A stretch of DNA of 64,000 bases from Patescibacteria group bacterium (GTDB lineage Bacteria; Patescibacteriota; Minisyncoccia; Phycocordibacterales; DATDWN01). Positions 7,025 through 56,021 of this stretch are shown here, one piece after another. Numbering within the stretch: the first letter of the stretch is position 1; the number at the start of each line of letters is the position of its first letter. The notes beneath the pieces were generated by a model, which worked only from the letters and a program-made list of their open reading frames with translations, did not search any database and was not told the origin of the DNA. The stretch covers positions 231,951-295,950 of the forward strand of contig JAZKJH010000002.1 of the NCBI GenBank assembly GCA_040384485.1, read 5' to 3'. Both the position numbers and the translations under genes were made by a program.

Positions 7025-7744
7025 CTATTTTCCTAGATAATAATTCAAAGTATAAATCCAATCTTCATCGTCGCCCTCACCACTGTCTCTCTGAGCCACT
7101 TTTTGATTTAGCAACCACTCTAAATACCCTCTGTCATTTTTTGCAACATCCTCTAGTTTTTTATCTTTATGTTTCCCAAAATTAAATTTTACATAAAGAG
7201 ACGGAGTGCTAGATATCTCTATCATTTTTTCCAATGCCTTTTCCTCACTGCCTTCTGTTTCAACTACTTTTGCTAGCAACCGTCCAAACACCGCTTCAAG
7301 CACAAGCACATCACCTTCAGCATCGTGGGCGTTTCCAGACACCTCTAGATCCAAGTAGTAACGCAAGAACTGCAAATTGTATTCTGGTATTACGGCTTCT
7401 TTGTCCAAAGCTCTCGCAACACGCAATGTACAAATGTATTTGGGTACCGACATTCCCTCAGATTTCAGCATAGTTATATCAAACAAAGCATTGTGAGCTA
7501 TCAGGACACCGATGTTCAACAACTCCTGCAAATCCTTTTTCATTTCACTTCCTTCGAAAGGCTTTTTGCCCTCCAACATTCTGTTGGTGATATGAGTAAT
7601 GCTCATAGACTTTACGGTCATAGGTACTGGTGGTTTGAAGTACTCTGTACGCACGACATCATCCACTTTGTAACAAATCTGGCACAGTCTATCCTTTTGC
7701 ATCTCGTTTCCTGTTGTCTCTGTATCTAGAAAAATTTTTTTCAT
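7025..7744 (-). CDS. DnaQ-like 3'-5' exonuclease (DEDDh) with a C-terminal DUF3820-like tail
   Basis: Exo I-III motifs: FLDTETTG, AHNALFDITML and HDAEGD. C-terminal FGKHKDKKLEDV...GYLEWL. Confidence 0.8.
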   Translation of the reverse strand: MKKIFLDTETTGNEMQKDRLCQICYKVDDVVRTEYFKPPVPMTVKSMSITHITNRMLEGKKPFEGSEMKKDLQELLNIGVLIAHNALFDITMLKSEGMSVPKYICTLRVARALDKEAVIPEYNLQFLRYYLDLEVSGNAHDAEGDVLVLEAVFGRLLAKVVETEGSEEKALEKMIEISSTPSLYVKFNFGKHKDKKLEDVAKNDRGYLEWLLNQKVAQRDSGEGDDEDWIYTLNYYLGK

Positions 7745-9142: not shown

Positions 9143-10504
9143 TTACATTCCAACGATAACCGCTCGAGTTATCGAACCCACGTAACCAACTGAAGGTGAA
9201 ATAGATTTAGCTATTTGAAATTTAATGACAGCTGCTCGGGTGGCCGGACCAAAATAGGTTGTTTCATTCCCTACTGAACCTGACCCAGTTGTCGCAATAA
9301 CGAAACCTTTGCTGTTTAGAAACTTTTGCAATAGACGAACATCTTCACCAGTCATACCAAGTGACAGATTTCTTGTTAGATTTAAACTACTAGCTCCTGT
9401 TGAAGTCGGTGTTGGAGTCATCGGACTTGGTGTCGGAATAGTTACTGAGGCAGTGACAACAGCTCGCGTGGCTGGACCGTAATATCCATCGGCAGGAAAT
9501 ATTCGCATTGCTGTTTGATATTCAATCAAAGCAGTTTGAGTAAGTGTACCAAAATACCCTGTCGCGCCTGCTACCGCCAAACGTTTTGCTTCTGCACCTA
9601 CTGACTTTGCAATAAGGTGAAGTTGGAGAGCAGTCACTTCAGCACCTCGTGAACCGAGAGTTAAATCCCCAGTTGGAACTGTTGGTGTAGGAGTGGTGGT
9701 AGTAGGAGGTATTACTGTTGTTCCAGGAATAAAGTTCAAAGTGCTGGTGATTATAGTTGGAAGAGTGATATTTTGTGATATCGCTGAGTTAAATGTACTT
9801 CTGAAATTTATAACTAGGAGTTTCGACAAAGCATCGGCGTCGGACGTTTGAGTTAGAATCTTCGAAAGAAAAGAAATTTTCTCTGCAATCGTGAACTCTT
9901 TTGTAAGTCTCGGAAATGGATCTATGTGGTTTCTGTCGCCAGTAAATATTTCAAAGTGCAAGTGAGCAGCACCACCAGAAGCATTACCTGTGTTTCCTAC
10001 ATAACCAATAAGCGAACCTGTTTCCAAAACAGTTCCTTCGGTCACCCCTTCACCTATTTTATCTAAATGCATGTAAACAAAAGTCTCACCGCCTGGGTTG
10101 GCAGTGTACACATATAGTCCTTCGGTAGTCCCTGTGCCAGTTCTTAAAACGACTGCTGGAGTTGGCGAAACAATAGGTGTTCCTTTTACAGCCATAATAT
10201 CCTGGCCTTCGTGAAGTCTTCCTCCAGAACGTGGGTCACCAAAGTTTGGTGACATATTGCTTCTCGCAACACCGAACAAAATTGGTATTGGTACTTCAGA
10301 TACTATACTTGCAGGTAAATTACTAATTTTCTGTTGTAACTCACTCGAGTCTCTTCTCCAAGTACGGATTCTTTCATAATAGTCAGTGGTTGATTCATTT
10401 GAGCCGGTGATTTGGGAAGTTGTCGCGGTCTGTGCAGAGGAAATAATTGGAATAATTAAAAAAACAGCCATAAATAAGGCTCCGAACATATAATTTTTTT
10501 TCAT
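9143..10504 (-). CDS. M23 family metallopeptidase with two C-terminal peptidoglycan-binding (PG_binding_1-like) domains
   Basis: Signal peptide. HEGQDI...HLHFEI M23 motifs. Two LxxGxxGxxVxxLQxxL...YFGxxTxxAVxxFQ repeats. Confidence 0.85.
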   Translation of the reverse strand: MKKNYMFGALFMAVFLIIPIISSAQTATTSQITGSNESTTDYYERIRTWRRDSSELQQKISNLPASIVSEVPIPILFGVARSNMSPNFGDPRSGGRLHEGQDIMAVKGTPIVSPTPAVVLRTGTGTTEGLYVYTANPGGETFVYMHLDKIGEGVTEGTVLETGSLIGYVGNTGNASGGAAHLHFEIFTGDRNHIDPFPRLTKEFTIAEKISFLSKILTQTSDADALSKLLVINFRSTFNSAISQNITLPTIITSTLNFIPGTTVIPPTTTTPTPTVPTGDLTLGSRGAEVTALQLHLIAKSVGAEAKRLAVAGATGYFGTLTQTALIEYQTAMRIFPADGYYGPATRAVVTASVTIPTPSPMTPTPTSTGASSLNLTRNLSLGMTGEDVRLLQKFLNSKGFVIATTGSGSVGNETTYFGPATRAAVIKFQIAKSISPSVGYVGSITRAVIVGM

Positions 10505-21988: not shown

Positions 21989-23281
21989 TTACACACTGAT
22001 ATGCCAATCTTCTACTTCGTTGTGCAACAATGGCAATAGATTCTCTTTTTTTACAATAACAGTATCCAATATTTTTTCCATCCATTCCTTAGCATTTGTT
22101 GCGTCTATTTTATTAGAACTAACTTTCGTTGAATCAAATAGACCATTAAAACCGTCCAGAAAAGAATCCGCCAATGCTTCCCTCTTTCCAGTATTTAGAC
22201 CTGCATCCTTTCCAGCCCTAATCAAAAGACGTAAACCGTAGCACATGTCTCTCATATCTTTTAGATAACTTCTAGGCACACCGCTATATTTTTTTGTTTT
22301 TTCTTTATCAACATCATCCTGCCATGGACCCATAGTGCCCACATCTGCTATCTCAGCTGCCAAAGTAACGTTGGCTGAATGCATGTAACCGTGGTCATAA
22401 CCTAAGTTAAAAAAGGTTGCCATGTTTTGTCCCATACGTTTAAAAAATTCCTGGAAAAATACTGGTTCCTCCTCCGGATTACCGATCGATATTTCTGGTA
22501 GGTCTAAATTCTTGTCGCGTGTTTCCTGATTAAAAACATCAAAAGCTTGTTTAAACAGTTCCTCTCTGCGTTCTCCGGACTGAGCAGCCTCAGCAATACG
22601 GTTGTTCATTTTAAACAACCTTACAACTTCGTATGGTTTATAGTCTTTTTTTGGAGAAATAACTTTTCGGTCTCTTAGCTCATCAACAGTCAACATCTGC
22701 CCTTTAAATGGAAGACGTTTTAACTCTGCCATTCCCCAATAAAGCTCAGTTCTTAATCCTGCACACATTAGATATTCTGAGTTCTCAAGCAGCGCCCCTC
22801 CTTCTGCTTCTTCTTTTGAAATTAAACCAAGGACTTTGTATCCCCGATCATTTACACCTTCTTTATCTTTGACAGCCCAGGAGTCATAATCTTCTATATT
22901 TAAATCTTTTGCAGTTGGTTTTAGATAACCAATACCTTTTGTACTAACTGCATAAAAATATTCTGTATATACTCTCCCTTGGTGGTCTTCTACCTCAATA
23001 CTACTTCTTACTCCGCTATCATTGATTGATCTCCAGTGAGGAGCCTCAACCATTTTTGTTTCTGTGCCTGTACTAGGACTAATAAACACGATAAAATCTC
23101 TAAAATCATGTGAGGATGTTATCCTGTCATTTTCTTCAACTGCCTCATAGTCTGTACCCTCCTCAAGTCGAACAAATTTCTCAGGCTTTGATTCTATCCC
23201 TTCTATTTCTCTACCAGAAAAGTTGTCTAAATCTACTAGTGTTGGTCTAACTTCTACTTCTATTTGTGGTTGTTTTTCCAT
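21989..23281 (-). CDS. hypothetical protein with a protein-kinase-like (APH/ChoK-type) catalytic-loop signature
   Basis: HGYMHSANVTL aligns with the HGDLHPGNV Brenner motif, but Tyr sits in the Asp position. A DVG (DFG-like) follows 10 residues later. The gene starts 10 bp after the stop of giant gene A. Confidence 0.55.
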   Translation of the reverse strand: MEKQPQIEVEVRPTLVDLDNFSGREIEGIESKPEKFVRLEEGTDYEAVEENDRITSSHDFRDFIVFISPSTGTETKMVEAPHWRSINDSGVRSSIEVEDHQGRVYTEYFYAVSTKGIGYLKPTAKDLNIEDYDSWAVKDKEGVNDRGYKVLGLISKEEAEGGALLENSEYLMCAGLRTELYWGMAELKRLPFKGQMLTVDELRDRKVISPKKDYKPYEVVRLFKMNNRIAEAAQSGERREELFKQAFDVFNQETRDKNLDLPEISIGNPEEEPVFFQEFFKRMGQNMATFFNLGYDHGYMHSANVTLAAEIADVGTMGPWQDDVDKEKTKKYSGVPRSYLKDMRDMCYGLRLLIRAGKDAGLNTGKREALADSFLDGFNGLFDSTKVSSNKIDATNAKEWMEKILDTVIVKKENLLPLLHNEVEDWHISV

Positions 23282-23290
23282 ATATTTTTA

Positions 23291-26200
23291 TTATTCCCAA
23301 TTACCATACCATTTTTCGTTACCGTCAGCATCGATTTCCCAGATCACAACTGGAGCGGTAGCGCTGTCGGTACTGTGTATGTTGTAATTGTTAAAATTTG
23401 TCTCACGTTTATCTTTTAAACCTATTTTTTTACATTTTAAAAACCTTTTTCTATATGAATCACTGACTGACTGCCGGTTGGTGGAAGCCATCCCGCGGGA
23501 GTCCATAGGTATTGCAACTTGTTGACACAGCATTTCCTTCGGAAGACTAGGGTCAGCTTTAATTCTTTCTTCTCTTAGTCGCTTCGCAGTCTCGATAGCC
23601 TCTTTCAGAACACCCTTCACAAAAGTATCGGCATTAACACTTTGAATAAAGTTTTCTGCTGGGTTGTTGGCACGTACAACAAGCACTGGCGTACCGGAAG
23701 ACCTGTTTGCTTGAATAGCCAACACAGAACCTCGTAGCTCTTCGTTTTGCTTACCTCTATTTGTTACATACACCCAAGTCCTAAGGCCTGGATACAGTCC
23801 TTTGGCCATGCTTTCATGTTGCGATGTATGACAAGAGTCCCCTAAATCCCCTGAGTAAATATTCAGTACCCCCGACACTGGCACCATCGATACCGCGACC
23901 TCTTTTTGAGTTTTTCCAGAGTAAACCCCCAAGATCTTGTCTAGTTTGTTTTTTAAAACTGTTATTGGCAAATGACCTGTTTGTTTATCGAGCTGTTGTT
24001 GCCAAGCGAGAGTAAGTTTTTCAAGTAACTCAGGAGAGAAACTCACATGGGATGTATGTTCTGGATCTTGTAAATGGTGAAGATAATGCTCCTCTATATA
24101 ATCTCGCGCAATCTTATGCACTCTGTAGACCATATCTGGGTTTGGAGACCGTCCTTCTTCAGAATCTACTAAACTATCGATCTCATCTCTTGAACCCTCA
24201 TCCATCACAATGCCATACATATGTAAGGCCGAAAAATCTCGTATTTCTTGTACTAAAGGAAGTTTTGCATCGAGTTTGTTCAGTTCTTCCAATACAGCAA
24301 CATAATCCTGGTCTTCCTGACTAGAATTATGAAGTTTTTTATCCAAATTTTTAATCTGCTCAGATGCATCTCTCAAGATATCTGCTTGGCGCTCGATTCC
24401 TTGTCTGCCTTTTGGGCTCTTAAGGGCTTTTAGTTTTTTAGACAGATTTTGTTTCTTTACAGAATCTTCCTCGTCCTCAATCATACTTTCTATATCTTCT
24501 AGTGAACTAGAAAGAAGCTGTCTAATACTGTTTTCCTCCGAAGCTAGCTTGCTCAATAAAGTGTTAAAGAACTGAAATGTTCCATTGCTTGAAGCAAAAT
24601 CGAGAGACTCCATAAGTGGCCCGCAAACATTTTTTAACTCTTGACTGGACATTAGCTCTTCCAAAGCTTTTTCTTGGTCAGGTGTTTTTTCTGATCCACG
24701 ACTCACAACAGAAACCTTGAAGCTTGATTCTTTAAAGCCTACAGGTAACTGAGCCACCTCTGGTTTATTTGTAATTGTTTTCTCCCATGTTGATACAATG
24801 TCTGATAATGCGTGATCTCTCTCAAATTGAGTGGAACCCTTTATCACACTAAACAACTCATCCCCTAATTCAGTTTTAAGTCCATCTGGAATAGTGTCCG
24901 CCAAAAGACTAGTTTTAATCCTTTTTAGGCCTTTGACTAATTCGTTAAACAATTCCAAAGAACTGTTGAACTTCCAAGATCCATCTTTGTTTTTTGCCTT
25001 AACTCCAAACTCTTCACATATACTTATGGTATCAGGACCGATTCTGTCCAGAGTTTTACTCCTATGACAGTCGGCATATACCTTAAACAGTCTCGGCAAG
25101 TTGCTCATTCCCATGGACTCAACAAAACTGACCACCAGCTCCGCATCCTCTGCTTTCTCTATAGAAACTATCTTATGGTCCACCAAATACTTCATTAGTG
25201 GTTTCAACTCTTGTTCCCAAGGATCGTTGGTGACATTAGCAGCGATAGCCTGGATTTTTTGCATTCTAGAAAAAGCATTGACCCACGGGTTGCGTGAAAT
25301 TATCTTGTGTAATTCATTAGCGATTTCGCTTTCTTTGGAAACTTCTTCCGTAAACTTTAGAACAGTGACCACTTTTTTGGGATCACTATACAAATGACTA
25401 TTCATCCAAGTTGAGATACTTTCAGGGTTGAATACTTTACCTGCAGCTTTCTCCCCGCCCATTTTTTCCAACACTAAATAGAAAAGAGTTTTATTTCCAT
25501 GTTTAATCGCTGTGACCAAAATATCTGTTGCGATCCCACTTATAAATTTAGGATCTGGTATTATCTCTTCAAGCTTGAATGCACCTGCTGGGTTCTGACC
25601 GGTGTCGATCAAAGATCTGACTGCATGGCTGGCTATGCGTTTTAATTCCTCTGAACTAAACTCTATTTGCTTGCCGGTTATTTTTTGAATTTTTGCTATT
25701 CGCTCTATGGTTTCGTTAAGACCATAAGCATCAAATGTTGTAAGATATCGAATAGCATAATTCCTAATCGGTATCTCATGTAATGCCCAGTCAATCTTTA
25801 CTTGAGTCAGCTCTTGTATAAGCTTGATAGAATCAGCGTTGCCTCGAAAAAGTCTCTGTACGTAAATGTCTTCAATTACTAGTCCGGTGAATTTCGGCTT
25901 AACTTTCGTTATAGTCTCCCATTCAGAAATATTAGCCTTCGCCCTCTCATATGTAGACTGATTATTAATTGTTGAAACTATAACATTGTATTGCTCCTGA
26001 ACCAGCCCTTCATTATTAGTAAAATCTGGTTCTATGCCTGTCATTTGATATCCGGCAGTGATAAGTTGCTTCATGTCTCTGTAGTTGTTTACAATCCAGG
26101 TTCTATAAGCCAATTGCATTCTTTTCGAATCAATTGTAGGTCGAATATTTGTGATTTTGTAAATTATTTCAGCTTTTTTTAAGCCTCTTGTTCCGTAGTA

Positions 26201-27715
26201 AGTGTCAGTTTCATATGCAGTAGCATTCAGAATGATTTCTGCATACATTTTTTGCACTTCTTTCTCCATTGATTTAAAATCTGGCTCCACACCTGTCAGC
26301 TGAACTAATGTTGGAACGTAATCCTCGGCATACTGAGATGGGTTTGTGAAAGCATCTAAATATTTATTTCTAACCTCCTCTGGGCTTATTTTAAACTTAA
26401 TGCCTGTTAATGAGCAAAGTTTTTTCATCGCCCGGAGTGTTTCCGGATAATATGACGAATACCCAAGTAGGTTTTCTTTATACTTATTTTGCAAGTGTAT
26501 ATCGTACGACTGGTAATCAGGTTTTATGCCTGTTAGTTCTTGCAAAAATGAAAATACTGGTTTTAGATCATCTTCATCATCGGATTTGTGGCAGGATTCT
26601 AGAGCCAAATTCCAGTATGCATACCTTATTAATCCTGGAAACCTTCCACTTTGATTATGTTCTTCTAGTAATTTATTTATTTCTTCCACTCGACGTTTGC
26701 AATCAGGAAGATTAGTACTGTCTGAATAAATAAAAAAATCTGAGAATTCCTTAATACTGTTTTTAAGTTCAATATCAAGAAATCTAAGTTCGTGTATCTC
26801 ATCAACCCCCTTCGGGTCAAGTGGGTCAGGAATACGCATGGGCTCTCTAGAGTATTGCTTTACACTTGAAACAATATAATCGATTGCATCATTAAACTTC
26901 TTTATCTCATTTTCCTCAGTTGTTTTTACCCTGATATTAACAAGTGCTTGAAGAATCGATTCTGCATCAAATATCCTAAGATTCTTAGGGTTTCCACCAG
27001 CCAAATTATAATCTGTTGTCATCTCTATATCAAAAATCTTCTTTAATTTTTCGATATCGTTCACATCGCCGATACGTCCCACTGGTCTATAGATATAGCT
27101 CTTAGTAGATCTATCTTCACTGTTTGCGACAGACTTATGCGCATAAAAATCTAGAACTAACTTCTTGTTTTTGGGTGTAGCCACGAGTTCTACTAACTGG
27201 GAATACCTAAATATTGTAGAGCTATGAGTTACTGGTTGATCCAAATAATCCAAAACATACAAAAGGACTTTAGATCCCTCCTTTCTAAGTTCATTACGTA
27301 ATCTTATAGTTTTTTGTAATGGAGTTTCTTCTATTTGTGGTTCAACCTCAACCTTATGTTCTGGCTGATTTTCCACCTGAGGTACGACTTTAACTTTATC
27401 GTCTTCCAGATTTTCTCCCTCATGTTGCGGATTTAGTTGCTCAAAAGGAACACCATTGTTTTCCTCGTTGTTATCATTGTCATCATCATAGGGAGGATCG
27501 TAGTCATAAAAGTCATCGTCATAATCGTCCTCATCATGGTCTGCTATATAAGGGTCATCCCACACACCCAAACGAACACACTCTTCCACTAGAGCTCTCA
27601 TGCGCTCCATGTCCTCTGGAGAAAGCTTGGCCTCTATTTGTTCCTCTGGTGACTTTCTCAAAGTCTCAACAGCTTCTGCAAGTGATTCCAGGCCCTTAAA
27701 AACCTTTCTTTCCAT
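23291..27715 (-). CDS. giant (1474-aa) cytoplasmic repeat protein A, paralogue of 27801..32000
   Basis: No signal peptide. N-terminal HEAT/PBS-lyase-like repeats (DRSTKSYIYRPVGRIGD). An acidic DDDDFYDYD block. About eight ~45-aa modules around (L/I)TGI(K/E)PD(F/Y). A conserved C-terminal domain with YSGDLGDSCHTSQHESMA. Confidence 0.8.
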   Translation of the reverse strand: MERKVFKGLESLAEAVETLRKSPEEQIEAKLSPEDMERMRALVEECVRLGVWDDPYIADHDEDDYDDDFYDYDPPYDDDNDNNEENNGVPFEQLNPQHEGENLEDDKVKVVPQVENQPEHKVEVEPQIEETPLQKTIRLRNELRKEGSKVLLYVLDYLDQPVTHSSTIFRYSQLVELVATPKNKKLVLDFYAHKSVANSEDRSTKSYIYRPVGRIGDVNDIEKLKKIFDIEMTTDYNLAGGNPKNLRIFDAESILQALVNIRVKTTEENEIKKFNDAIDYIVSSVKQYSREPMRIPDPLDPKGVDEIHELRFLDIELKNSIKEFSDFFIYSDSTNLPDCKRRVEEINKLLEEHNQSGRFPGLIRYAYWNLALESCHKSDDEDDLKPVFSFLQELTGIKPDYQSYDIHLQNKYKENLLGYSSYYPETLRAMKKLCSLTGIKFKISPEEVRNKYLDAFTNPSQYAEDYVPTLVQLTGVEPDFKSMEKEVQKMYAEIILNATAYETDTYYGTRGLKKAEIIYKITNIRPTIDSKRMQLAYRTWIVNNYRDMKQLITAGYQMTGIEPDFTNNEGLVQEQYNVIVSTINNQSTYERAKANISEWETITKVKPKFTGLVIEDIYVQRLFRGNADSIKLIQELTQVKIDWALHEIPIRNYAIRYLTTFDAYGLNETIERIAKIQKITGKQIEFSSEELKRIASHAVRSLIDTGQNPAGAFKLEEIIPDPKFISGIATDILVTAIKHGNKTLFYLVLEKMGGEKAAGKVFNPESISTWMNSHLYSDPKKVVTVLKFTEEVSKESEIANELHKIISRNPWVNAFSRMQKIQAIAANVTNDPWEQELKPLMKYLVDHKIVSIEKAEDAELVVSFVESMGMSNLPRLFKVYADCHRSKTLDRIGPDTISICEEFGVKAKNKDGSWKFNSSLELFNELVKGLKRIKTSLLADTIPDGLKTELGDELFSVIKGSTQFERDHALSDIVSTWEKTITNKPEVAQLPVGFKESSFKVSVVSRGSEKTPDQEKALEELMSSQELKNVCGPLMESLDFASSNGTFQFFNTLLSKLASEENSIRQLLSSSLEDIESMIEDEEDSVKKQNLSKKLKALKSPKGRQGIERQADILRDASEQIKNLDKKLHNSSQEDQDYVAVLEELNKLDAKLPLVQEIRDFSALHMYGIVMDEGSRDEIDSLVDSEEGRSPNPDMVYRVHKIARDYIEEHYLHHLQDPEHTSHVSFSPELLEKLTLAWQQQLDKQTGHLPITVLKNKLDKILGVYSGKTQKEVAVSMVPVSGVLNIYSGDLGDSCHTSQHESMAKGLYPGLRTWVYVTNRGKQNEELRGSVLAIQANRSSGTPVLVVRANNPAENFIQSVNADTFVKGVLKEAIETAKRLREERIKADPSLPKEMLCQQVAIPMDSRGMASTNRQSVSDSYRKRFLKCKKIGLKDKRETNFNNYNIHSTDSATAPVVIWEIDADGNEKWYGNWE

Positions 27716-27716
27716 T

Positions 27717-27790
27717 TTGGGTGAATTTAGAATTAATACTTATATTTTAAGATAGTTAGGGTTAAATTACAAACTGTGTCTAGCTTAAAA
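27717..27790 (-). promoter_or_regulatory. promoter of giant gene A: TTGTAA-17-TAAAAT, duplicated at 32003..32075
   Basis: CCTAACTATCTTAAAATATAaGTATTAATTCTAAATT is near-identical upstream of both giant genes. Confidence 0.5.
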
Positions 27791-27800
27791 ATAGTCGGTA

Positions 27801-30800
27801 TTACTCCCAATTACCGTGCCATGTTTCCTTCCCGTCTGCATCTATTTCCCAGATCACCACTGTGGCAGTACCGCTACGTAAACTATGAACATCATATCCA
27901 TTAAAGTTTGTCTCTCTAGTACTCTCTAACTCAACCTTTTTACACTCCTTGAATCTTTTTCTGTACACATCATTTACTGGTTGGCGGTTGGTAGATGCCA
28001 TACCTCGTGAGTCCATTGGAATTGTTACTTTTTGACAAAGAAGATGGTTGGGTAGGCTTGGGTTAGATTTGATTCTCTCTGCTCTCAAACGTTTTGCTGT
28101 TTCGACTGCTTGTTTCAACACATCTACCACAAGAGACTCTGATTCAACACTTTGAATAAAGTTTTCTGAAGGATTGTTTGCTCTTACAATAAGGACCGGC
28201 GAACCATCTGGTTCTGTCGCTTGGATAGATAACACCGAACCCTTTAACTCCTCATTCTGCTTACCTCTGTTTGTTACATAGACCCAGGTCCGGAGGTTAG
28301 GATATGACCCGTTCGCCATTGATTCATGCTGATGAGTATGACAAGAGTCACCCAAGTCCCCTGAGTAAATGTGAAGTAGACCAGAAACAGGAACTAGAGA
28401 AACAGAAATCTCCTTTTTAGTTTTTCCAGCATATACTCCTAAAATCTTGTCTATTTTGTTTTTCAAAACAGTGATAGGCAAATGCCCAGTTTGTTTATCA
28501 AGCTGCTGTTGCCACACAAGAGTTAGTTTTTCTAAAAGCTCTGGAGAAAAAGTTTGGTGATTTGTGTGTTCACTGTCCTGCAGGTGATGCAAATAATGCT
28601 CCTCTATATAGTCTCTGGCAATTTTATGTAGCTTATATATATTTTCCGGACTTGGTGATACACCTTCATCAGAATCTACCATGTCAGTCACAGCTACTCT
28701 TTGTGCCCCCTGCATAACCACATCAAACATATGCAATGCAGAAAAATCTCTTATCTCTTTAGTTAAAGGAATTTTTTTATCAAGCTGATTTAATGCTTCT
28801 AGAACGTCCGTGTAGTCCGAATCCTGTGAATGACCTTCATCAAACTTATCCTGCACCTTTACTACCTGATCTACAGAGTCCCGCAAAATATCTGCCTGAT
28901 TCTCTATTCCCAATCTGCCTTTAGGATTTTGTAAGGCTTTAAATTTCTTCGTTAAATTTTGTTTTGATTTTGGATCCTCCTCTTTTTCTATCATGCTCTC
29001 CATTTCTTCTCTGGAGCAGGAAAGAAGTCTTCTAAGAGACGTCTCCTCTTCTTTGAGTTTGGCCACCAAATCAGTGAAAAAATTATAAACTCCTTTTGTA
29101 GCTCCGAACTCGATAGATTTTGCCAGTGGCACGTAAGAATCCACCACTTCCTGACTACTCATTAGTTTTTCTAACTCCACCTCCTGATCCGCAGTTTTTT
29201 CTATTTTGTGACTTAATGCGGGAACTTTAAAAGTAGCTTCCTGGAAACCAGAGGGTAATTTTGCCACTTCTGGATACGCTTCTGCAGTGTTATTCCATAT
29301 ATCAAGAAGCACTGGTAAACTATGACTCCTTTCAAATTGGGTTGAACCTTTTATACGACTAAACAGTTCCTCCCCTAACTCAGTAGTAAGAGCTCCCGGA
29401 ACTTTATCTTCCAGCAAGCCAGTCTGAATACCTTTGAGAATTTTACTTAACTCATTGAACAGCTCCAAAGAACTTTTAAATCTCCAGGATCCGTCTTTGT
29501 TTTTTGTCTTAATGTCACAACCTTCACACACACTGATTGTGAATGCACCTAATTTATCTAAAGTTTTGTTTCTATGACAATCAGCATAAACCTCAAAGAT
29601 TTTGCTCAAATTCTTCATGCCCATAAGCTCAATAAAAGATACCACCAATTCAGCATCTGCAGGATTCTCCATAGAAATTATTCTTTCACCCACAATAAAC
29701 TTCATAAAAGGTTTGAATTCTTTTGTCCATGGGTCATTGGTTACATTTTTTGCCACGGCTTGAACTTTTTCGAGCCTTGTAAAAGCTGACATCCATGGGG
29801 TATGGGAAATTTCTTTATAAATAGAAAATGCTAACTCACTCTTATCAGAATGCTCTTGTAAAAACTTTAGGATAGTAAAACTTTTTCCTGGATCTTCGTG
29901 GAGATTACGGATAGCAATCTCTGACATGCTTTTAATATTAAAATCTACTTTTCTTCCTTTAAGTTGCTTGATTGCCTCCCCAAAAAGGTGGCTGTCGGCA
30001 TATTGAATAGCATGCACCAAAATATTTTCAATAACAGAATTGATAGCCTCCTGATCAGAGAAAATTTCTTGGAATCTAAGGGTGCCGAGTGGGGACATGC
30101 CGTATTCTCGTAAACGTCTTCTATTTGTCGAAATGATTCCAACCATTTCATCCTGTGTAAAATTTATCTTTAATCCCGTTATCTCTTGGACTTGCTTCAC
30201 ACTATCAATAACCTTGTCAAAATCGTATGGGTCATAAACAGTAAGAACATCGAGGCATTTACTCTTTATTTCTTTCTCCCGAGAAGTCCAGCCAATGTCG
30301 ACCCCTGTTAGTGTTTGCAAGGCCATTATTGTCTCGGCCGACCCTCTAAAAAGGTTACGCACATAAATTTCACCTATTATTTTTTCATTGTACTGAGGCT
30401 TAATTTTACAAATTTTCTCCAAATTCTCAATTTGTTTCATTGCCGCAGACAATGAGTCGACACTAATGACTCCTGAAAGGATTCGGCTATATTTATTTTG
30501 GACGTGAGCCTCCGATTTAGAAAAGTCTGGCTCTATTCCAGTAAGCTCATAACCTTTGGTAATTAGGTCAACTACATCTCCTGTACCGTCAAAGAGCCAA
30601 GTTTGGTAACAAAGTTGCATTTGAGAATCCTTAATTTTTGGACGGATTTTTGTTTTTTCATACATCAATTCTGCACATTTAAATCCTGTAGCACCCCAAT
30701 AATCATCGGACTCATAACTGCTGGAATTCATAATTATGCGATCGTAAGATTGCTGAATCTCGGGTTCTAACTTATTAAAGTCGATTTTGCTTTCTGTTAC

Positions 30801-32000
30801 ACTCTCGAGTATTTCCAAATAATCATTTGGATACTTGTGCAGGTTAGCCAAAACATATATATACTTTTCTTTTATGAAATTCGGATCTACCTCGAACTTG
30901 ATTTTAGTTATTGAATACAATTTTTCAATGCACATAAGGTTGTAGTCCTCCACCTCATCACCCGGAAAAAAGTTTTCATCATACATGCCTTGTACCTCAC
31001 TCTTACGAGAAGTGTAGTCCGGTTTCAAGTTGGTAATTGTTTCTAAAAAAGCTATTTGTTCAAAGTATTCGTCACCACGGGAGACACGTTCCGTCATTTT
31101 CCAATAAGCATTTTGTATTAGTTCTGGAAGTAAATCCTCTGCTTTCTCCTCTGCAAGTGCTTTTTTCAAGTTTGTAAAATTAGAAACAGTTCGGGTATTG
31201 TCTATGGCCTGAGACTCAAAATAGCGATTAAACTCTCTAATTAGTTCTGAAGTATTAGGATGGAAAAACTCTGAGCGGAATTCAATATCGGCTTCATGAG
31301 GATCATTTGCATGAGGAGTATAAACTTGGCCTATCTCTCCATTGATATAGTTGATAGCATTATTTATTCTTTCTATATCATGCTCATTCTTTGTGCGCGC
31401 TCGAATATCCACTAAGGCCCGAATAACCAAATCACCATCTAAGGATTTGTAATACTCCTTATCGTATTGCTGGTAGTTCGTAGTGAGAGTAATGTCAAAA
31501 TATTTTTTCAAACCTTCAACATGATCGGCACTACCAATACGGCCCATAATTTCATGAATATATGATTTAGTTGATCTGTCTGGAATAGCAGCAACATCTT
31601 TTTTGCTATAAAACTCAAGAATTTCATCAGCATTTTCTTCTGATGCAGCATACTTCAAAATTTTTGAGTATTTATAGACCTTAAGGTTGTTTACCTCCGG
31701 TCCATCCATGTATTGCAAAATAAGAGGAACTATTTTTCCCCTTTCATCCCTAATCTGCCTACGCAGTTTTACTATTTCTTCATTTCTAGCATCCTGGTCT
31801 TCTTTACGTTTATGACTTAATCCTCGAGTGCTATATACCGAATCCCATACACCTTTTTCCATGCATTCTTCCAAAAGAGCTTCCATACGCTCCATTTCCT
31901 CCGGAGAAAGCTTGGCCTCTATTTGTTCCTCTGGTGACTTTCTCAAAGTCTCAACAGCTTCTGCAAGTGATTCCAGGCCCTTAAAAACCTTTCTTTCCAT
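27801..32000 (-). CDS. giant (1399-aa) cytoplasmic repeat protein B, paralogue of 23291..27715
   Basis: The first 33 aa are identical to A, and the nucleotides at 31900..32003 are essentially identical to 27611..27716. It has the same module series and the same C-terminal domain (YSGDLGDSCHTHQHESMA). Confidence 0.8.
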   Translation of the reverse strand: MERKVFKGLESLAEAVETLRKSPEEQIEAKLSPEEMERMEALLEECMEKGVWDSVYSTRGLSHKRKEDQDARNEEIVKLRRQIRDERGKIVPLILQYMDGPEVNNLKVYKYSKILKYAASEENADEILEFYSKKDVAAIPDRSTKSYIHEIMGRIGSADHVEGLKKYFDITLTTNYQQYDKEYYKSLDGDLVIRALVDIRARTKNEHDIERINNAINYINGEIGQVYTPHANDPHEADIEFRSEFFHPNTSELIREFNRYFESQAIDNTRTVSNFTNLKKALAEEKAEDLLPELIQNAYWKMTERVSRGDEYFEQIAFLETITNLKPDYTSRKSEVQGMYDENFFPGDEVEDYNLMCIEKLYSITKIKFEVDPNFIKEKYIYVLANLHKYPNDYLEILESVTESKIDFNKLEPEIQQSYDRIIMNSSSYESDDYWGATGFKCAELMYEKTKIRPKIKDSQMQLCYQTWLFDGTGDVVDLITKGYELTGIEPDFSKSEAHVQNKYSRILSGVISVDSLSAAMKQIENLEKICKIKPQYNEKIIGEIYVRNLFRGSAETIMALQTLTGVDIGWTSREKEIKSKCLDVLTVYDPYDFDKVIDSVKQVQEITGLKINFTQDEMVGIISTNRRRLREYGMSPLGTLRFQEIFSDQEAINSVIENILVHAIQYADSHLFGEAIKQLKGRKVDFNIKSMSEIAIRNLHEDPGKSFTILKFLQEHSDKSELAFSIYKEISHTPWMSAFTRLEKVQAVAKNVTNDPWTKEFKPFMKFIVGERIISMENPADAELVVSFIELMGMKNLSKIFEVYADCHRNKTLDKLGAFTISVCEGCDIKTKNKDGSWRFKSSLELFNELSKILKGIQTGLLEDKVPGALTTELGEELFSRIKGSTQFERSHSLPVLLDIWNNTAEAYPEVAKLPSGFQEATFKVPALSHKIEKTADQEVELEKLMSSQEVVDSYVPLAKSIEFGATKGVYNFFTDLVAKLKEEETSLRRLLSCSREEMESMIEKEEDPKSKQNLTKKFKALQNPKGRLGIENQADILRDSVDQVVKVQDKFDEGHSQDSDYTDVLEALNQLDKKIPLTKEIRDFSALHMFDVVMQGAQRVAVTDMVDSDEGVSPSPENIYKLHKIARDYIEEHYLHHLQDSEHTNHQTFSPELLEKLTLVWQQQLDKQTGHLPITVLKNKIDKILGVYAGKTKKEISVSLVPVSGLLHIYSGDLGDSCHTHQHESMANGSYPNLRTWVYVTNRGKQNEELKGSVLSIQATEPDGSPVLIVRANNPSENFIQSVESESLVVDVLKQAVETAKRLRAERIKSNPSLPNHLLCQKVTIPMDSRGMASTNRQPVNDVYRKRFKECKKVELESTRETNFNGYDVHSLRSGTATVVIWEIDADGKETWHGNWE

Positions 32001-32002
32001 TT

Positions 32003-32075
32003 TTAGTAAATTTAGAATTAATACCTATATTTTAAGATAGTTAGGTTTAATTTACAAACGACTTACAATTTGGGA
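32003..32075 (-). promoter_or_regulatory. promoter of giant gene B, a duplicate of the gene A promoter
   Basis: TTGTAA-17-TAAAAT with the same flanks as 27717..27790. Confidence 0.5.
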
Positions 32076-32089
32076 ATTTTTGATATATA

Positions 32090-32131
32090 AGAAAAGCCCG
32101 ACCCGATGACGTGTTGTCATCGGCTCGGGCT
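32090..32131 (-). terminator. rho-independent terminator of 32141..32908
   Basis: AGCCCGACCCGATGAC-GTGTT-GTCATCGGCTCGGGCT with a TTTTCTT run on the minus strand. Confidence 0.55.
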
Positions 32132-32140
32132 CGTGTGTGT

Positions 32141-32908
32141 CTAAATGAACAGTTCACTCAGAGGACGGAAGTCCTCGTGAGGTGAGAGAGTCGTCCGTTC
32201 ATGTCCATGGTAGAGATATGCATTTCGGCGTGTATTGGAACTGAGTACTCTGTACTCATCCCCAATCACCTGCAAGGCACAATCGTCATCCACTGAAATG
32301 ACCGGCATAAGGAAACCCTTCTGCTCACTCAGGTAGTCCAGCTCATTTCTCCTCCAATCCTCGGAGTTGTGATGAGGTGAGTGATAGAACGGGAGCAATC
32401 CAAGACCTTTGACCCAGATGGGTTTCCAGTTCTTGATGCCAATGAACTTGTTGGAATCGCTCAGTCCAGCTTCAAACCAGCAGATGGATCCTGCGCTAAG
32501 TCCCATCATCACTTTTCCTTGAGCATGAGCAGAGCGAAGCAAGTTTGAGACTCCTGTTTCGTTCCAGATGTTCATCATCTCGCGGGTGTTACCTCCGCCT
32601 ACGTAGATGATGTCTGCCCACGCGATCTTGGAACTGATCTCCTTGAAGTAGACCTTGTCCTGCGCGAGGAGCAAATGCTCGTAGTTACATCCCAACCGAA
32701 GATGAAACTGGGTGTAGATGTTATGGCAGTATGCCATATCATCCAAGCTTGCGGTTGGCAGAAACAGTACATTGACTGTATCCCGCCCAACCGGCAACTC
32801 TGACGCAGCCAGTCGAACTGCTTCTTGGTCTATCGAAAGTGTGGTCGGTGGAGCACACTGGGTACGCACCGAGCCCCCTCCGATTGCAATTATCTTGGTT
32901 TTCGCCAC
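32141..32908 (-). CDS. S51 peptidase (peptidase E / cyanophycinase-like)
   Basis: IYVGGGNT and GLSAGS (GxSxG nucleophile) motifs. Markedly G+C-richer than the surrounding window. Confidence 0.7.
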   Translation of the reverse strand: MAKTKIIAIGGGSVRTQCAPPTTLSIDQEAVRLAASELPVGRDTVNVLFLPTASLDDMAYCHNIYTQFHLRLGCNYEHLLLAQDKVYFKEISSKIAWADIIYVGGGNTREMMNIWNETGVSNLLRSAHAQGKVMMGLSAGSICWFEAGLSDSNKFIGIKNWKPIWVKGLGLLPFYHSPHHNSEDWRRNELDYLSEQKGFLMPVISVDDDCALQVIGDEYRVLSSNTRRNAYLYHGHERTTLSPHEDFRPLSELFI

Positions 32909-35519: not shown

Positions 35520-36017
35520 TTATAACACTTCTTGAATATATTTAGGAACCATATCTAAAGCCAGATATTTTTCTTTTAGTTTTTTTGGAAGTTTTTTGAA
35601 CTGACCCACAATTCCCCTACAACTTGAACTACCGCATTTACACTTCATTGTCCAAGAGTCGTCAGAAGCTATAATGGTAGAATAATCGAAAACTATTTCC
35701 TCCCCCTTTTTAACCTCAGAGACAGTAACAGCAAAAAGTTTATCCCCTATTTTTACAATCCTTGTATTTGGTTCACACGAGTGGTTCATATAGTTAGAAG
35801 GATAACCTTCAGGACTTATATACAGTTCATCATCATAGCGAATAGTGTTGGCTCTGGTTGTTTCATCAATATCCTCATCTTCATAACAAGTAACAAGCTT
35901 CCCTCTTATCTGAAAAATTCTTGTTCCTAACTTGAATCCCTTGGTCGCAAAAAGCCCATTTCCGTTTTTAGCTTTTTTAACTTCCACCCCTTTTCGTACC
36001 TTAATTTTCATTATCAT
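35520..36017 (-). CDS. SET-domain protein (putative protein-lysine methyltransferase) with a post-SET Cys cluster
   Basis: NHSCEPN, GEEIVFDY and CKCGSSSCRG motifs. Confidence 0.8.
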   Translation of the reverse strand: MIMKIKVRKGVEVKKAKNGNGLFATKGFKLGTRIFQIRGKLVTCYEDEDIDETTRANTIRYDDELYISPEGYPSNYMNHSCEPNTRIVKIGDKLFAVTVSEVKKGEEIVFDYSTIIASDDSWTMKCKCGSSSCRGIVGQFKKLPKKLKEKYLALDMVPKYIQEVL

Positions 36018-54731: not shown

Positions 54732-56021
54732 TTAGTAGTTTGCTTGTATGTAAGCTCGAGTAATCGGACCAAAGTTACCCAAGGCAGGATTAACACCAAC
54801 ATTGGCCTGGAACTCTGCTAACGCAGCTCGAGTAAGTACACCAAAGTATGAAGTTGCACCAACTCTAGCAAGAGCTTTTGCAGATGCACCTATATCAAGA
54901 GAAATTAGAAAATCTTGAAGAGTCTTTACGTCTCCTCCTCTACTGCCCACACCAAGACTCATAGCGATAAGCTTGATTGGGTTTGGTGGGTTAGCTCCTG
55001 ACTGTGCTGATTGCATTATTTGAATCTGCGCCATCAAAACACTCAACTGTGCCTCAAGTGCAGCTCTTTGTTCTGCAGTACCTGAGTTCGAATTTGAAGT
55101 AGTATTTGTAGAAGTGTTTGATGGAGTGTTTGTTGTAGTTTGATTGTTTGTATTTGATGTAACAACTGGCGAGTTCGGGTTTGTAGTTCCCGAATTAGTG
55201 TTACTTGTTGAAGTAACAGTAACAACTGGTTCAACTACTGGAACAACTACTGTAGCTGTTCCTTCTGACTTTGTAATTGAGTTTGAATCGAGAGTCACTG
55301 CTGTTTGAGCCAATGCTCTACCATTTAGACTTGCACCAGTGTTAAACACAATCGCTGTCTTTCCGAGTATGTTTCCATTAAAAGCAGCTGTTGTACCGAT
55401 AGTAACCTGTCCACCTACAATCCAGTAGACATTGTTTGCCTGAGCACCACCAGATAGAACTATGTTTACACCAGAACTCACATCTAGAGTTTGTGCTATT
55501 TGGAAAATCCAAATATCATTTGGTCCACCAGACAAAGTTACATTACTTGGAACAATAACTCCGGTTCCCCATTTGTATAAACCAGGTGTAATAGTAAGAC
55601 CTCCAATGTTACCAGCACCTAACTCTGTTGCAGTCGGGTTAGTTCTTCCAGCTCCATCTGTGTATGCTGTTTCCATATCACCTATTGCTGTTATTAAATT
55701 ACTTGGAGTTGGATCTGCATACCCAGGAGCATATATTTTCCCTGTTACTATTGCAGATGTTGAAAATGCAGAAGCAGATGGAAGTGATAAAGCGAAACCT
55801 GTTATTGCACTAGCTGAGATAGGACTGACTCCCAAGTCTCCTGTAACCATAGTAGTTCCTGTAGTTGAAACTCCTGTTTTAGATAGTATTACAAAGTTTC
55901 CAGCAGTTCCTAGGTTTATAGCACCTGGTCCAGCTGCCAAAGCAGTGTTAGAAGCAGTAATCCCAAAAAGAGAGAACATTAGTAAAAACGCGAGTAACGA
56001 ATACTTGTTATTTTTTTTCAT
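54732..56021 (-). CDS. secreted DUF3494 (ice-binding-like) domain protein with a Thr/Asn/Ser-rich linker and a C-terminal peptidoglycan-binding domain
   Basis: Signal peptide. LGTAGNFVILSKTGVSTTGTTMVTGDLGVSP. C-terminal LGVGSRGGDVKTLQDFL...YFGVLTRAALAEFQ. Confidence 0.7.
   Translation of the reverse strand: MKKNNKYSLLAFLLMFSLFGITASNTALAAGPGAINLGTAGNFVILSKTGVSTTGTTMVTGDLGVSPISASAITGFALSLPSASAFSTSAIVTGKIYAPGYADPTPSNLITAIGDMETAYTDGAGRTNPTATELGAGNIGGLTITPGLYKWGTGVIVPSNVTLSGGPNDIWIFQIAQTLDVSSGVNIVLSGGAQANNVYWIVGGQVTIGTTAAFNGNILGKTAIVFNTGASLNGRALAQTAVTLDSNSITKSEGTATVVVPVVEPVVTVTSTSNTNSGTTNPNSPVVTSNTNNQTTTNTPSNTSTNTTSNSNSGTAEQRAALEAQLSVLMAQIQIMQSAQSGANPPNPIKLIAMSLGVGSRGGDVKTLQDFLISLDIGASAKALARVGATSYFGVLTRAALAEFQANVGVNPALGNFGPITRAYIQANY

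Follow-up and report, generated by a model that had tools for sequence, protein, structure and literature searches.

How do two neighbouring genes that have diverged to saturation come to share their promoter-like site and their first 33 codons? The question is raised by a stretch of 64,000 nucleotides (nt) from a Patescibacteria group bacterium (assembly GCA_040384485.1, contig JAZKJH010000002.1, positions 231,951 to 295,950; hereafter the window), in which two giant paralogues lie in tandem on the minus strand. The upstream paralogue, gene B (27801..32000), encodes 1399 amino acids (aa) and the downstream one, gene A (23291..27715), 1474 aa; both were delimited from the open reading frame (ORF) list and its translations, for B together with family scans. 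The product of gene A is identical to NCBI protein V4690_01750, annotated as 'Patescibacteria group bacterium' from a metagenome-assembled genome, and family scans of the A and B proteins returned no Pfam, PHROG or NCBIfam assignment. Together the two copies occupy ~9 kb of the genome. Over their whole length the proteins agree at 51% of residues and the aligned genes at 59% of nucleotides, with synonymous sites saturated. Set against this remainder, the identity of the promoter-like site and the first 33 codons is best explained by segmental gene conversion between old tandem paralogues, an account that we hold to be probable and that an earlier note on this DNA, made from the letters alone, had anticipated in calling the shared 5' end a gene-conversion substrate.

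The shared element, referred to here as the 5' module, spans -59..+137 relative to the ATG (27579..27774 on A and 31864..32059 on B, both minus strand) and holds a promoter-like site, the 5' untranslated region (5'UTR) and the first ~45 codons. It was delimited by a repeat finder (family D3, a direct repeat of 196 nt with 93% identity and a spacing of 4285 nt), by alignment and by a mismatch map, the last of which also located an exact core of 101 nt at -3..+98 (27618..27718 on A and 31903..32003 on B, minus strand). At the protein level, identity is unbroken to residue 34 (MERKVFKGLESLAEAVETLRKSPEEQIEAKLSPE), with one synonymous change in codon 33. Upstream of the core, 50 of 56 positions are identical in -59..-4 (6 mismatches), and homology breaks off sharply at -60, with 38% identity in -120..-61; downstream, 30 of 38 positions are identical in +99..+135 (8 mismatches). 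Each half of the module is present in two copies in the window against 0 expected, and no third copy of either half was found there. Base-by-base alignment and the repeat finder thereby bear out what the earlier note had described, namely near-identical 5' ends, a conserved ~55 bp upstream of them with the site TTGTAA-17-TAAAAT in both copies, and diverged middle regions; its assignment to the plus strand was wrong, the genes being on the minus strand, and its ranges are off by a few bases.

Neither chance nor conservation of the protein accounts for the core. In the first 33 codons, the same codon is used at 31 of the 32 positions with an identical amino acid, compared to 283 of 644 (44%) elsewhere (P~4e-12). 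Upon permutation of codon columns (n = 10,000), the longest exact run had a mean of 16 nt and a maximum of 41 nt, whereas the coding part of the core runs to 98 nt; no other exact match between A and B is longer than 23 nt. Nucleotide identity is 100% over the first 30 codons and 38-81% elsewhere, and past the start about half of the codons for identical amino acids differ (20-80% per 30-codon window), the block with the highest conservation (97% aa, 81% nt) being no exception. The 3' edge of the tract is sharp: in +99..+135 the protein is still conserved, yet 4 of ~10 codons for identical amino acids differ, which is approximately background, and the family-wide motif LSPEDMERM.AL.EEC is located beyond +98. 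The boundaries of the tract are discrete, lying upstream at -59/-60, at the end of homology, and downstream at +98/+99, at the return to approximately background synonymous divergence.

The age of the duplication was assessed with a bootstrapped neighbour-joining tree of 711 C-terminal columns, comprising A, B and 16 other members of the family. A and B are sisters in this tree with 100% bootstrap support and on long branches. In the C-terminal half they are 59% identical to each other and 53-54% identical to the nearest other genome, and in the N-terminal half only 35% identical to each other. All seven other loci are distant and single-copy, and no tandem pair was found among them. Judged by these comparisons, the duplication is lineage-specific but ancient, and the identical 5' end must therefore be much younger than the genes that carry it.

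According to the account we favour, A and B would stem from an old, lineage-specific tandem duplication of a single gene, and the duplicated unit would begin at about -59 and end shortly after the stop codon, so that the 5' edge of the tract would be the end of the unit. Non-reciprocal homologous recombination between the copies would have homogenised their 5' ends, while the rest of the genes diverged to saturation. The 101-nt exact core is best explained as the minimal tract of the most recent conversion, which would cover at least -3..+98; the putative promoter, to -59, would have been homogenised by the same or by an older event. Upstream, the tract would be bounded by the end of homology at -60, beyond which it cannot reach because there is no homology. 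Downstream it would end at +98/+99, shortly before unalignable sequence, where gene A carries an acidic low-complexity insertion of ~75 aa (residues ~56-130, about 27326..27550, minus strand) in which Asp, Tyr, Glu and Asn abound. This insertion is found in A only and is placed directly after the homogenised segment, with a short linker at the same place in B. Orthologues, too, have D/Y-rich linkers of variable length.

Several points weigh against this account. The conversion is read from one assembled sequence, with neither donor nor recipient assigned. The discordance on which it builds is one of branch length only, since the C-terminal tree likewise pairs A with B and no second genome with orthologues of both was found among the collections. 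The mismatches are distributed unevenly, with 6 in the 56 positions of -59..-4 and 0 in the 101 of the core (Fisher p = 0.0017), which calls for two nested events or for selection acting on the coding part. The core contains only 22.3 synonymous sites, however, and a single event followed by ~10% neutral divergence would still have P~0.09; two nested events and selection on the promoter are equally possible explanations of the unevenness. Finally, the similarity of promoter and 5'UTR may stem in part from purifying selection, since motifs within them are common to L002, a JGI metagenome contig encoding protein P0003, which is the one orthologue with a homologous N-terminus (MEKKVFKGLEAL / MEKKVFKGLEALGDAV).

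The last two of these points could be taken further, to purifying selection at the nucleotide level as the sole cause: the promoter, the 5'UTR and the first ~100 nt of both mRNAs would form a cis-regulatory element that each copy has conserved independently since the duplication, for instance an operator, a target of a small or antisense RNA, an unstructured translation-initiation region that works without a Shine-Dalgarno motif, or an mRNA stability element. Partial conservation of the promoter and 5'UTR even in the distant L002, whose upstream region also has TTGTA[AC], TAAC-AT and TATTAATTyTAAAwT, would agree with this, as would the absence of mismatches from the core. The leaders of A and B are short and have no Shine-Dalgarno motif, and such motifs are rare in the whole window, being present in -20..-4 for 15 of the 62 ORFs of at least 150 aa (counted from the first ATG, with crude start calls), which suggests low Shine-Dalgarno usage in the genome; early coding sequence could matter for initiation under these circumstances. 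The coding part of L002 speaks to the contrary. Of 13 identical residues within the same 33 codons, L002 encodes 5 with the codon used in A or B, a proportion at background, and its first 22 codons differ from those of A at 20 positions, 10 of them third positions, so that the peptide is kept and the synonymous sites are not. With synonymous divergence at background, the segment is ordinary coding sequence without family-wide constraint at the nucleotide level. The region -23..+116 folds no better than its shuffles (z = +0.63), a search of the whole window with Rfam at the gathering threshold found no family, and an antisense gene was rejected because stop codons interrupt all three plus-strand frames across the module. 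A match to NRON in a permissive Rfam scan of 27500-27850 was dismissed as due to chance. Above all, 22 perfect synonymous sites amid saturation would need constraint on every base, for which we know of no precedent at a coding 5' end, and we regard this explanation as unlikely.

As the source is a metagenome-assembled genome, we also considered that the identity might be an artefact of assembly or consensus, in which two similar 5' ends were collapsed or cross-corrected, or genes from different positions or strains were joined via a shared k-mer. The exact repeat of 101 nt is close to the k-mer size of assemblers, gene B did not turn up among the database proteins, and exact-protein look-ups of A and B in independent assemblies came back empty. 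The structure of the repeat points the other way, as imperfect homology adjoins its exact core at either end (6 and 8 mismatches), as expected of biological homology and unlike a k-mer collapse. Moreover, the stop codon of B is joined to the promoter copy of A by unique sequence within 27 nt, the outer flanks fit the synteny of other loci (a Peptidase_S51 gene upstream, a ~430-aa partner downstream), and genes whose products are 51% identical are not strain variants. An artefact is therefore quite improbable, even if, in practice, an exact 101-nt direct repeat spaced 4.3 kb apart can mislead short-read assembly.

Gene conversion between A and B would then represent a statistically unambiguous case of partial concerted evolution in the Patescibacteria (the candidate phyla radiation), which have very small genomes and in which intragenomic recombination is, to our knowledge, little documented. 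The mechanism as such is well known and ordinary; it is the gene family that is unusual, and current understanding is not overturned.

The consequences for expression follow from the upstream part of the module. A sigma-70-like site, TTGTAA-17-TAAAAT, lies before A (27744..27772, minus strand) and an identical one before B (32029..32057, minus strand). Downstream of the promoter-like site, both copies have the 5'UTR motif TATTAATTCTAAATT, and so has L002. Just upstream of the promoter copy of B, a comparison of folds with shuffles identified a strong intrinsic terminator (32087..32132, minus strand), whose hairpin (-31.4 kcal/mol, z = -7.2) leads into the stretch UUUUCUU. This terminator closes the Peptidase_S51 gene found by family scan at 32141..32908 (minus strand), and B therefore opens a new transcription unit. 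The intergenic region between B and A holds no significant hairpin (z = -0.55) and no terminator, so that A probably also receives read-through from B. With the same promoter-like site, 5'UTR and 33 codons, A and B should start transcription and translation alike, and co-regulation is plausible from the layout of the locus. The strict co-regulation proposed in the earlier note is supported as far as the common promoter-like site and initiation region go; the word 'strict' is at odds with the likely read-through from B into A.

A different motif is seen upstream of the orthologues that have a longer N-terminus (long form), which come from different candidate phyla with a GC content of 41-53% at the locus. 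These have a non-coding motif, approximately TAGCAT(A/T)-N9-15-TTGTCAA, that ends 6-25 nt before the ATG (L003 ~7625-7690; L004 ~395-448; L005 ~9470-9511; L007 ~9610-9658) and in L004 lies within the palindrome ATGCTAATTATAGCAT. This motif could represent a promoter or operator that has been conserved. The upstream motif of A, B and L002 differs from it.

Whether the identity of the two 5' ends is itself of use to the cell is a separate matter. The module might be actively maintained, with selection favouring conversions that keep promoter, 5'UTR and 33 codons identical, either to secure matched amounts of the two products, which could for instance be the two subunits of a single assembly, or as a handle by which populations of a reduced-genome episymbiont could lose or amplify the 4.3-kb gene B; we give this idea a small chance, on the low side though not a negligible one. 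In principle, direct repeats of 101 nt (exact) or 196 nt (93%) that are 4.3 kb apart would be a substrate for RecA-type deletion or duplication, and their possible effect would be the deletion or amplification of gene B. A related reading is programmed variation or a copy-number switch, in which the module would be kept as a recombination handle to delete, amplify or swap the bodies of the paralogues by cassette exchange. The geometry is suitable, since the 5' ends form direct repeats, the 3' third is still fairly conserved (64-81% nt) and the middle has diverged strongly, and it resembles that of the bab genes of Helicobacter pylori; moreover, an episymbiotic way of life is common among Patescibacteria, and large proteins that vary would suit it. 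Yet there are only two copies, both full-length and with a promoter copy of their own, no silent cassettes, no recombinase among the immediate neighbours in family scans, and no signal peptide or transmembrane segment that would point to surface exposure. Exact matches in the 3' region do not exceed 23 nt, which leaves no second crossover point, and all seven other loci are single-copy. The mismatches do not suggest a diversity-generating retroelement either: a template/variable-repeat pair was rejected since they are mixed (C>T, C>A, T>A, G>A, G>T) instead of adenine-specific, and since the repeat lies at the 5' end of both genes. We consider programmed variation very unlikely.

Among known systems, duplicates are kept identical by RecA-dependent gene conversion in tufA/tufB of Salmonella and E. 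coli and in rRNA operons. As for these, non-reciprocal recombination would keep synonymous sites identical within one genome; unlike them, where homogenisation takes in the entire gene and the copies are equivalent in function, A and B are homogenised over 157-196 nt of ~4.3 kb and saturated in the rest. In Neisseria pilE/pilS and Borrelia vlsE, one expression site draws on many silent cassettes that lack a promoter, and it is the variable part that conversion alters. There, too, conserved segments beside variable ones serve as recombination handles, whereas A and B are two full-length genes with promoter copies, and what they have in common is the constant part. The closest documented case, with the same anatomy, is that of the H. 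pylori bab paralogues (PMC4552749). Segmental gene conversion among babA, babB and babC gives rise to shared 5' and 3' ends and to chimeric genes, with conversion in the 5' region occurring ~60-240 bp from the start codon (PMC4552749). Both systems combine near-identical N-terminal coding sequence with a divergent middle, have their tracts within the first few hundred bp, and attach regulatory or 5' features of one copy to the other. The bab genes differ in that they occupy dispersed loci, encode outer-membrane adhesins with signal peptides, contain phase-variable CT repeats and have chimeras documented in populations; A and B are arranged in tandem, apparently cytoplasmic, without a simple-sequence repeat in the module, and known from one assembly.

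The peptide encoded by the core has charges on 14 of its 34 residues, lacks a hydrophobic core and does not resemble a targeting signal, and neither A nor B has a transmembrane segment or signal peptide (maximum 19-residue Kyte-Doolittle mean of 1.25). In the long-form orthologues from Yanofskybacteria, Sungbacteria and others, the homologue of residues ~14-56 is a linker inside the protein (residues ~105-147). Among 150 representatives of the family, matches to the peptide are N-terminal only in L002/P0003 and lie in the internal linker in long-form orthologues. A role of the 33 aa as a targeting or recognition peptide, as proposed in the earlier note, finds no support in a highly charged segment that for the most part has a linker as its homologue. 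The alignment instead suggests that the short form (ME[RK]-KVFKGL-ESLA) may be a remnant of the long form (MEK...EVFEGV...SLA) after in-frame loss of a ~70-aa N-terminal beta-domain, the first ~10 residues of the short form looking like what the deletion left behind. A word-index protein search with the N-terminal peptide gave 0 matches, not even to P0001 itself, and this null result is uninformative.

The family to which A and B belong was found by an exhaustive HMMER profile search with the C-terminal 700 aa as the query, word-index searches having been weak (3, then 1 matches). It comprises 496 representative clusters; full-length members among those listed mostly have 1000-2500 aa, with the conserved region at the C-terminus. 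The C-terminal core of A (residues 1190-1474; 23291..24148, minus strand) is 76% identical to that of B, and AlphaFold2 confidently predicts a GNAT-like fold for it (predicted local distance difference test, pLDDT, of 94). It stands apart from the GNAT superfamily in its sequence identity of 7-13%, in Foldseek E-values of 0.011 or worse and in its position at the end of proteins of 1000-2500 aa. The core has no Pfam GNAT or NCBIfam match, and the acyl-CoA pyrophosphate motif Q/R-x-x-G-x-G/A is not evident; in place of this canonical motif, an invariant R-A-N-N-P follows a beta-strand. The invariant residues of the core are its own: His21, Cys106, Arg159-x-x-Asn162-Pro163 and Asn224-Arg225. A literature search on giant proteins in Patescibacteria yielded nothing on this family, which, with about 500 clusters and no Pfam or NCBIfam assignment, is a more useful by-product than the conversion finding itself. 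Within gene A, residues ~394-700 (about 25616..26536, minus strand) contain 8 copies of a repeat with the core L-T-G-I-x-P-D-F...Q..Y, spaced 34-48 aa apart; the pattern is rarer in B and in orthologues (2-3 matches each) and has no matching Pfam repeat family.

Related loci from Yanofskybacteria, Sungbacteria, Saccharibacteria and unclassified Patescibacteria hold one giant copy each, and in every one of them the giant gene adjoins a homologue of a ~430-aa partner. In the window the partner gene is located at 21989..23281 (minus strand), starting 10 nt past the stop codon of A. It is directly downstream of the giant gene in L001/L003, L002, L004/L008, L006 and L007/L009, and upstream in L005. 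The partner is characterised by the N-terminal motif NPTLEELD..GREI.GI..RPEKF and an identity of 39-65% across loci; it has no PDB or Pfam match, and a single-sequence structure model had a pLDDT of 36 and was unusable. The giant gene is also often found beside one or two genes of Peptidase_S51 (cyanophycinase/dipeptidase E family), including in L001/L003, and an ABC-F ATPase is encoded near the giant genes in the window and in L002. The giant of L006 (9875..12490, MGR_bin369), which is closest to A and B over the C-terminal half (53-54%), has 861 aa and is without the N-terminal ~645 residues; ~3.3 kb upstream of it carry no long ORF on its strand, and it may be a decayed or split gene.

A phage origin of the locus was rejected, as megablast gave 0 matches to 50,697 phage records, PHROG matches were generic and the neighbouring genes are cellular. 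Elsewhere, the window encodes a SET-domain protein (E = 7e-14; 35520..36017, minus strand), and an ice-binding-like domain is present in the product of another of its genes (E = 1e-73; 54732..56021, minus strand).

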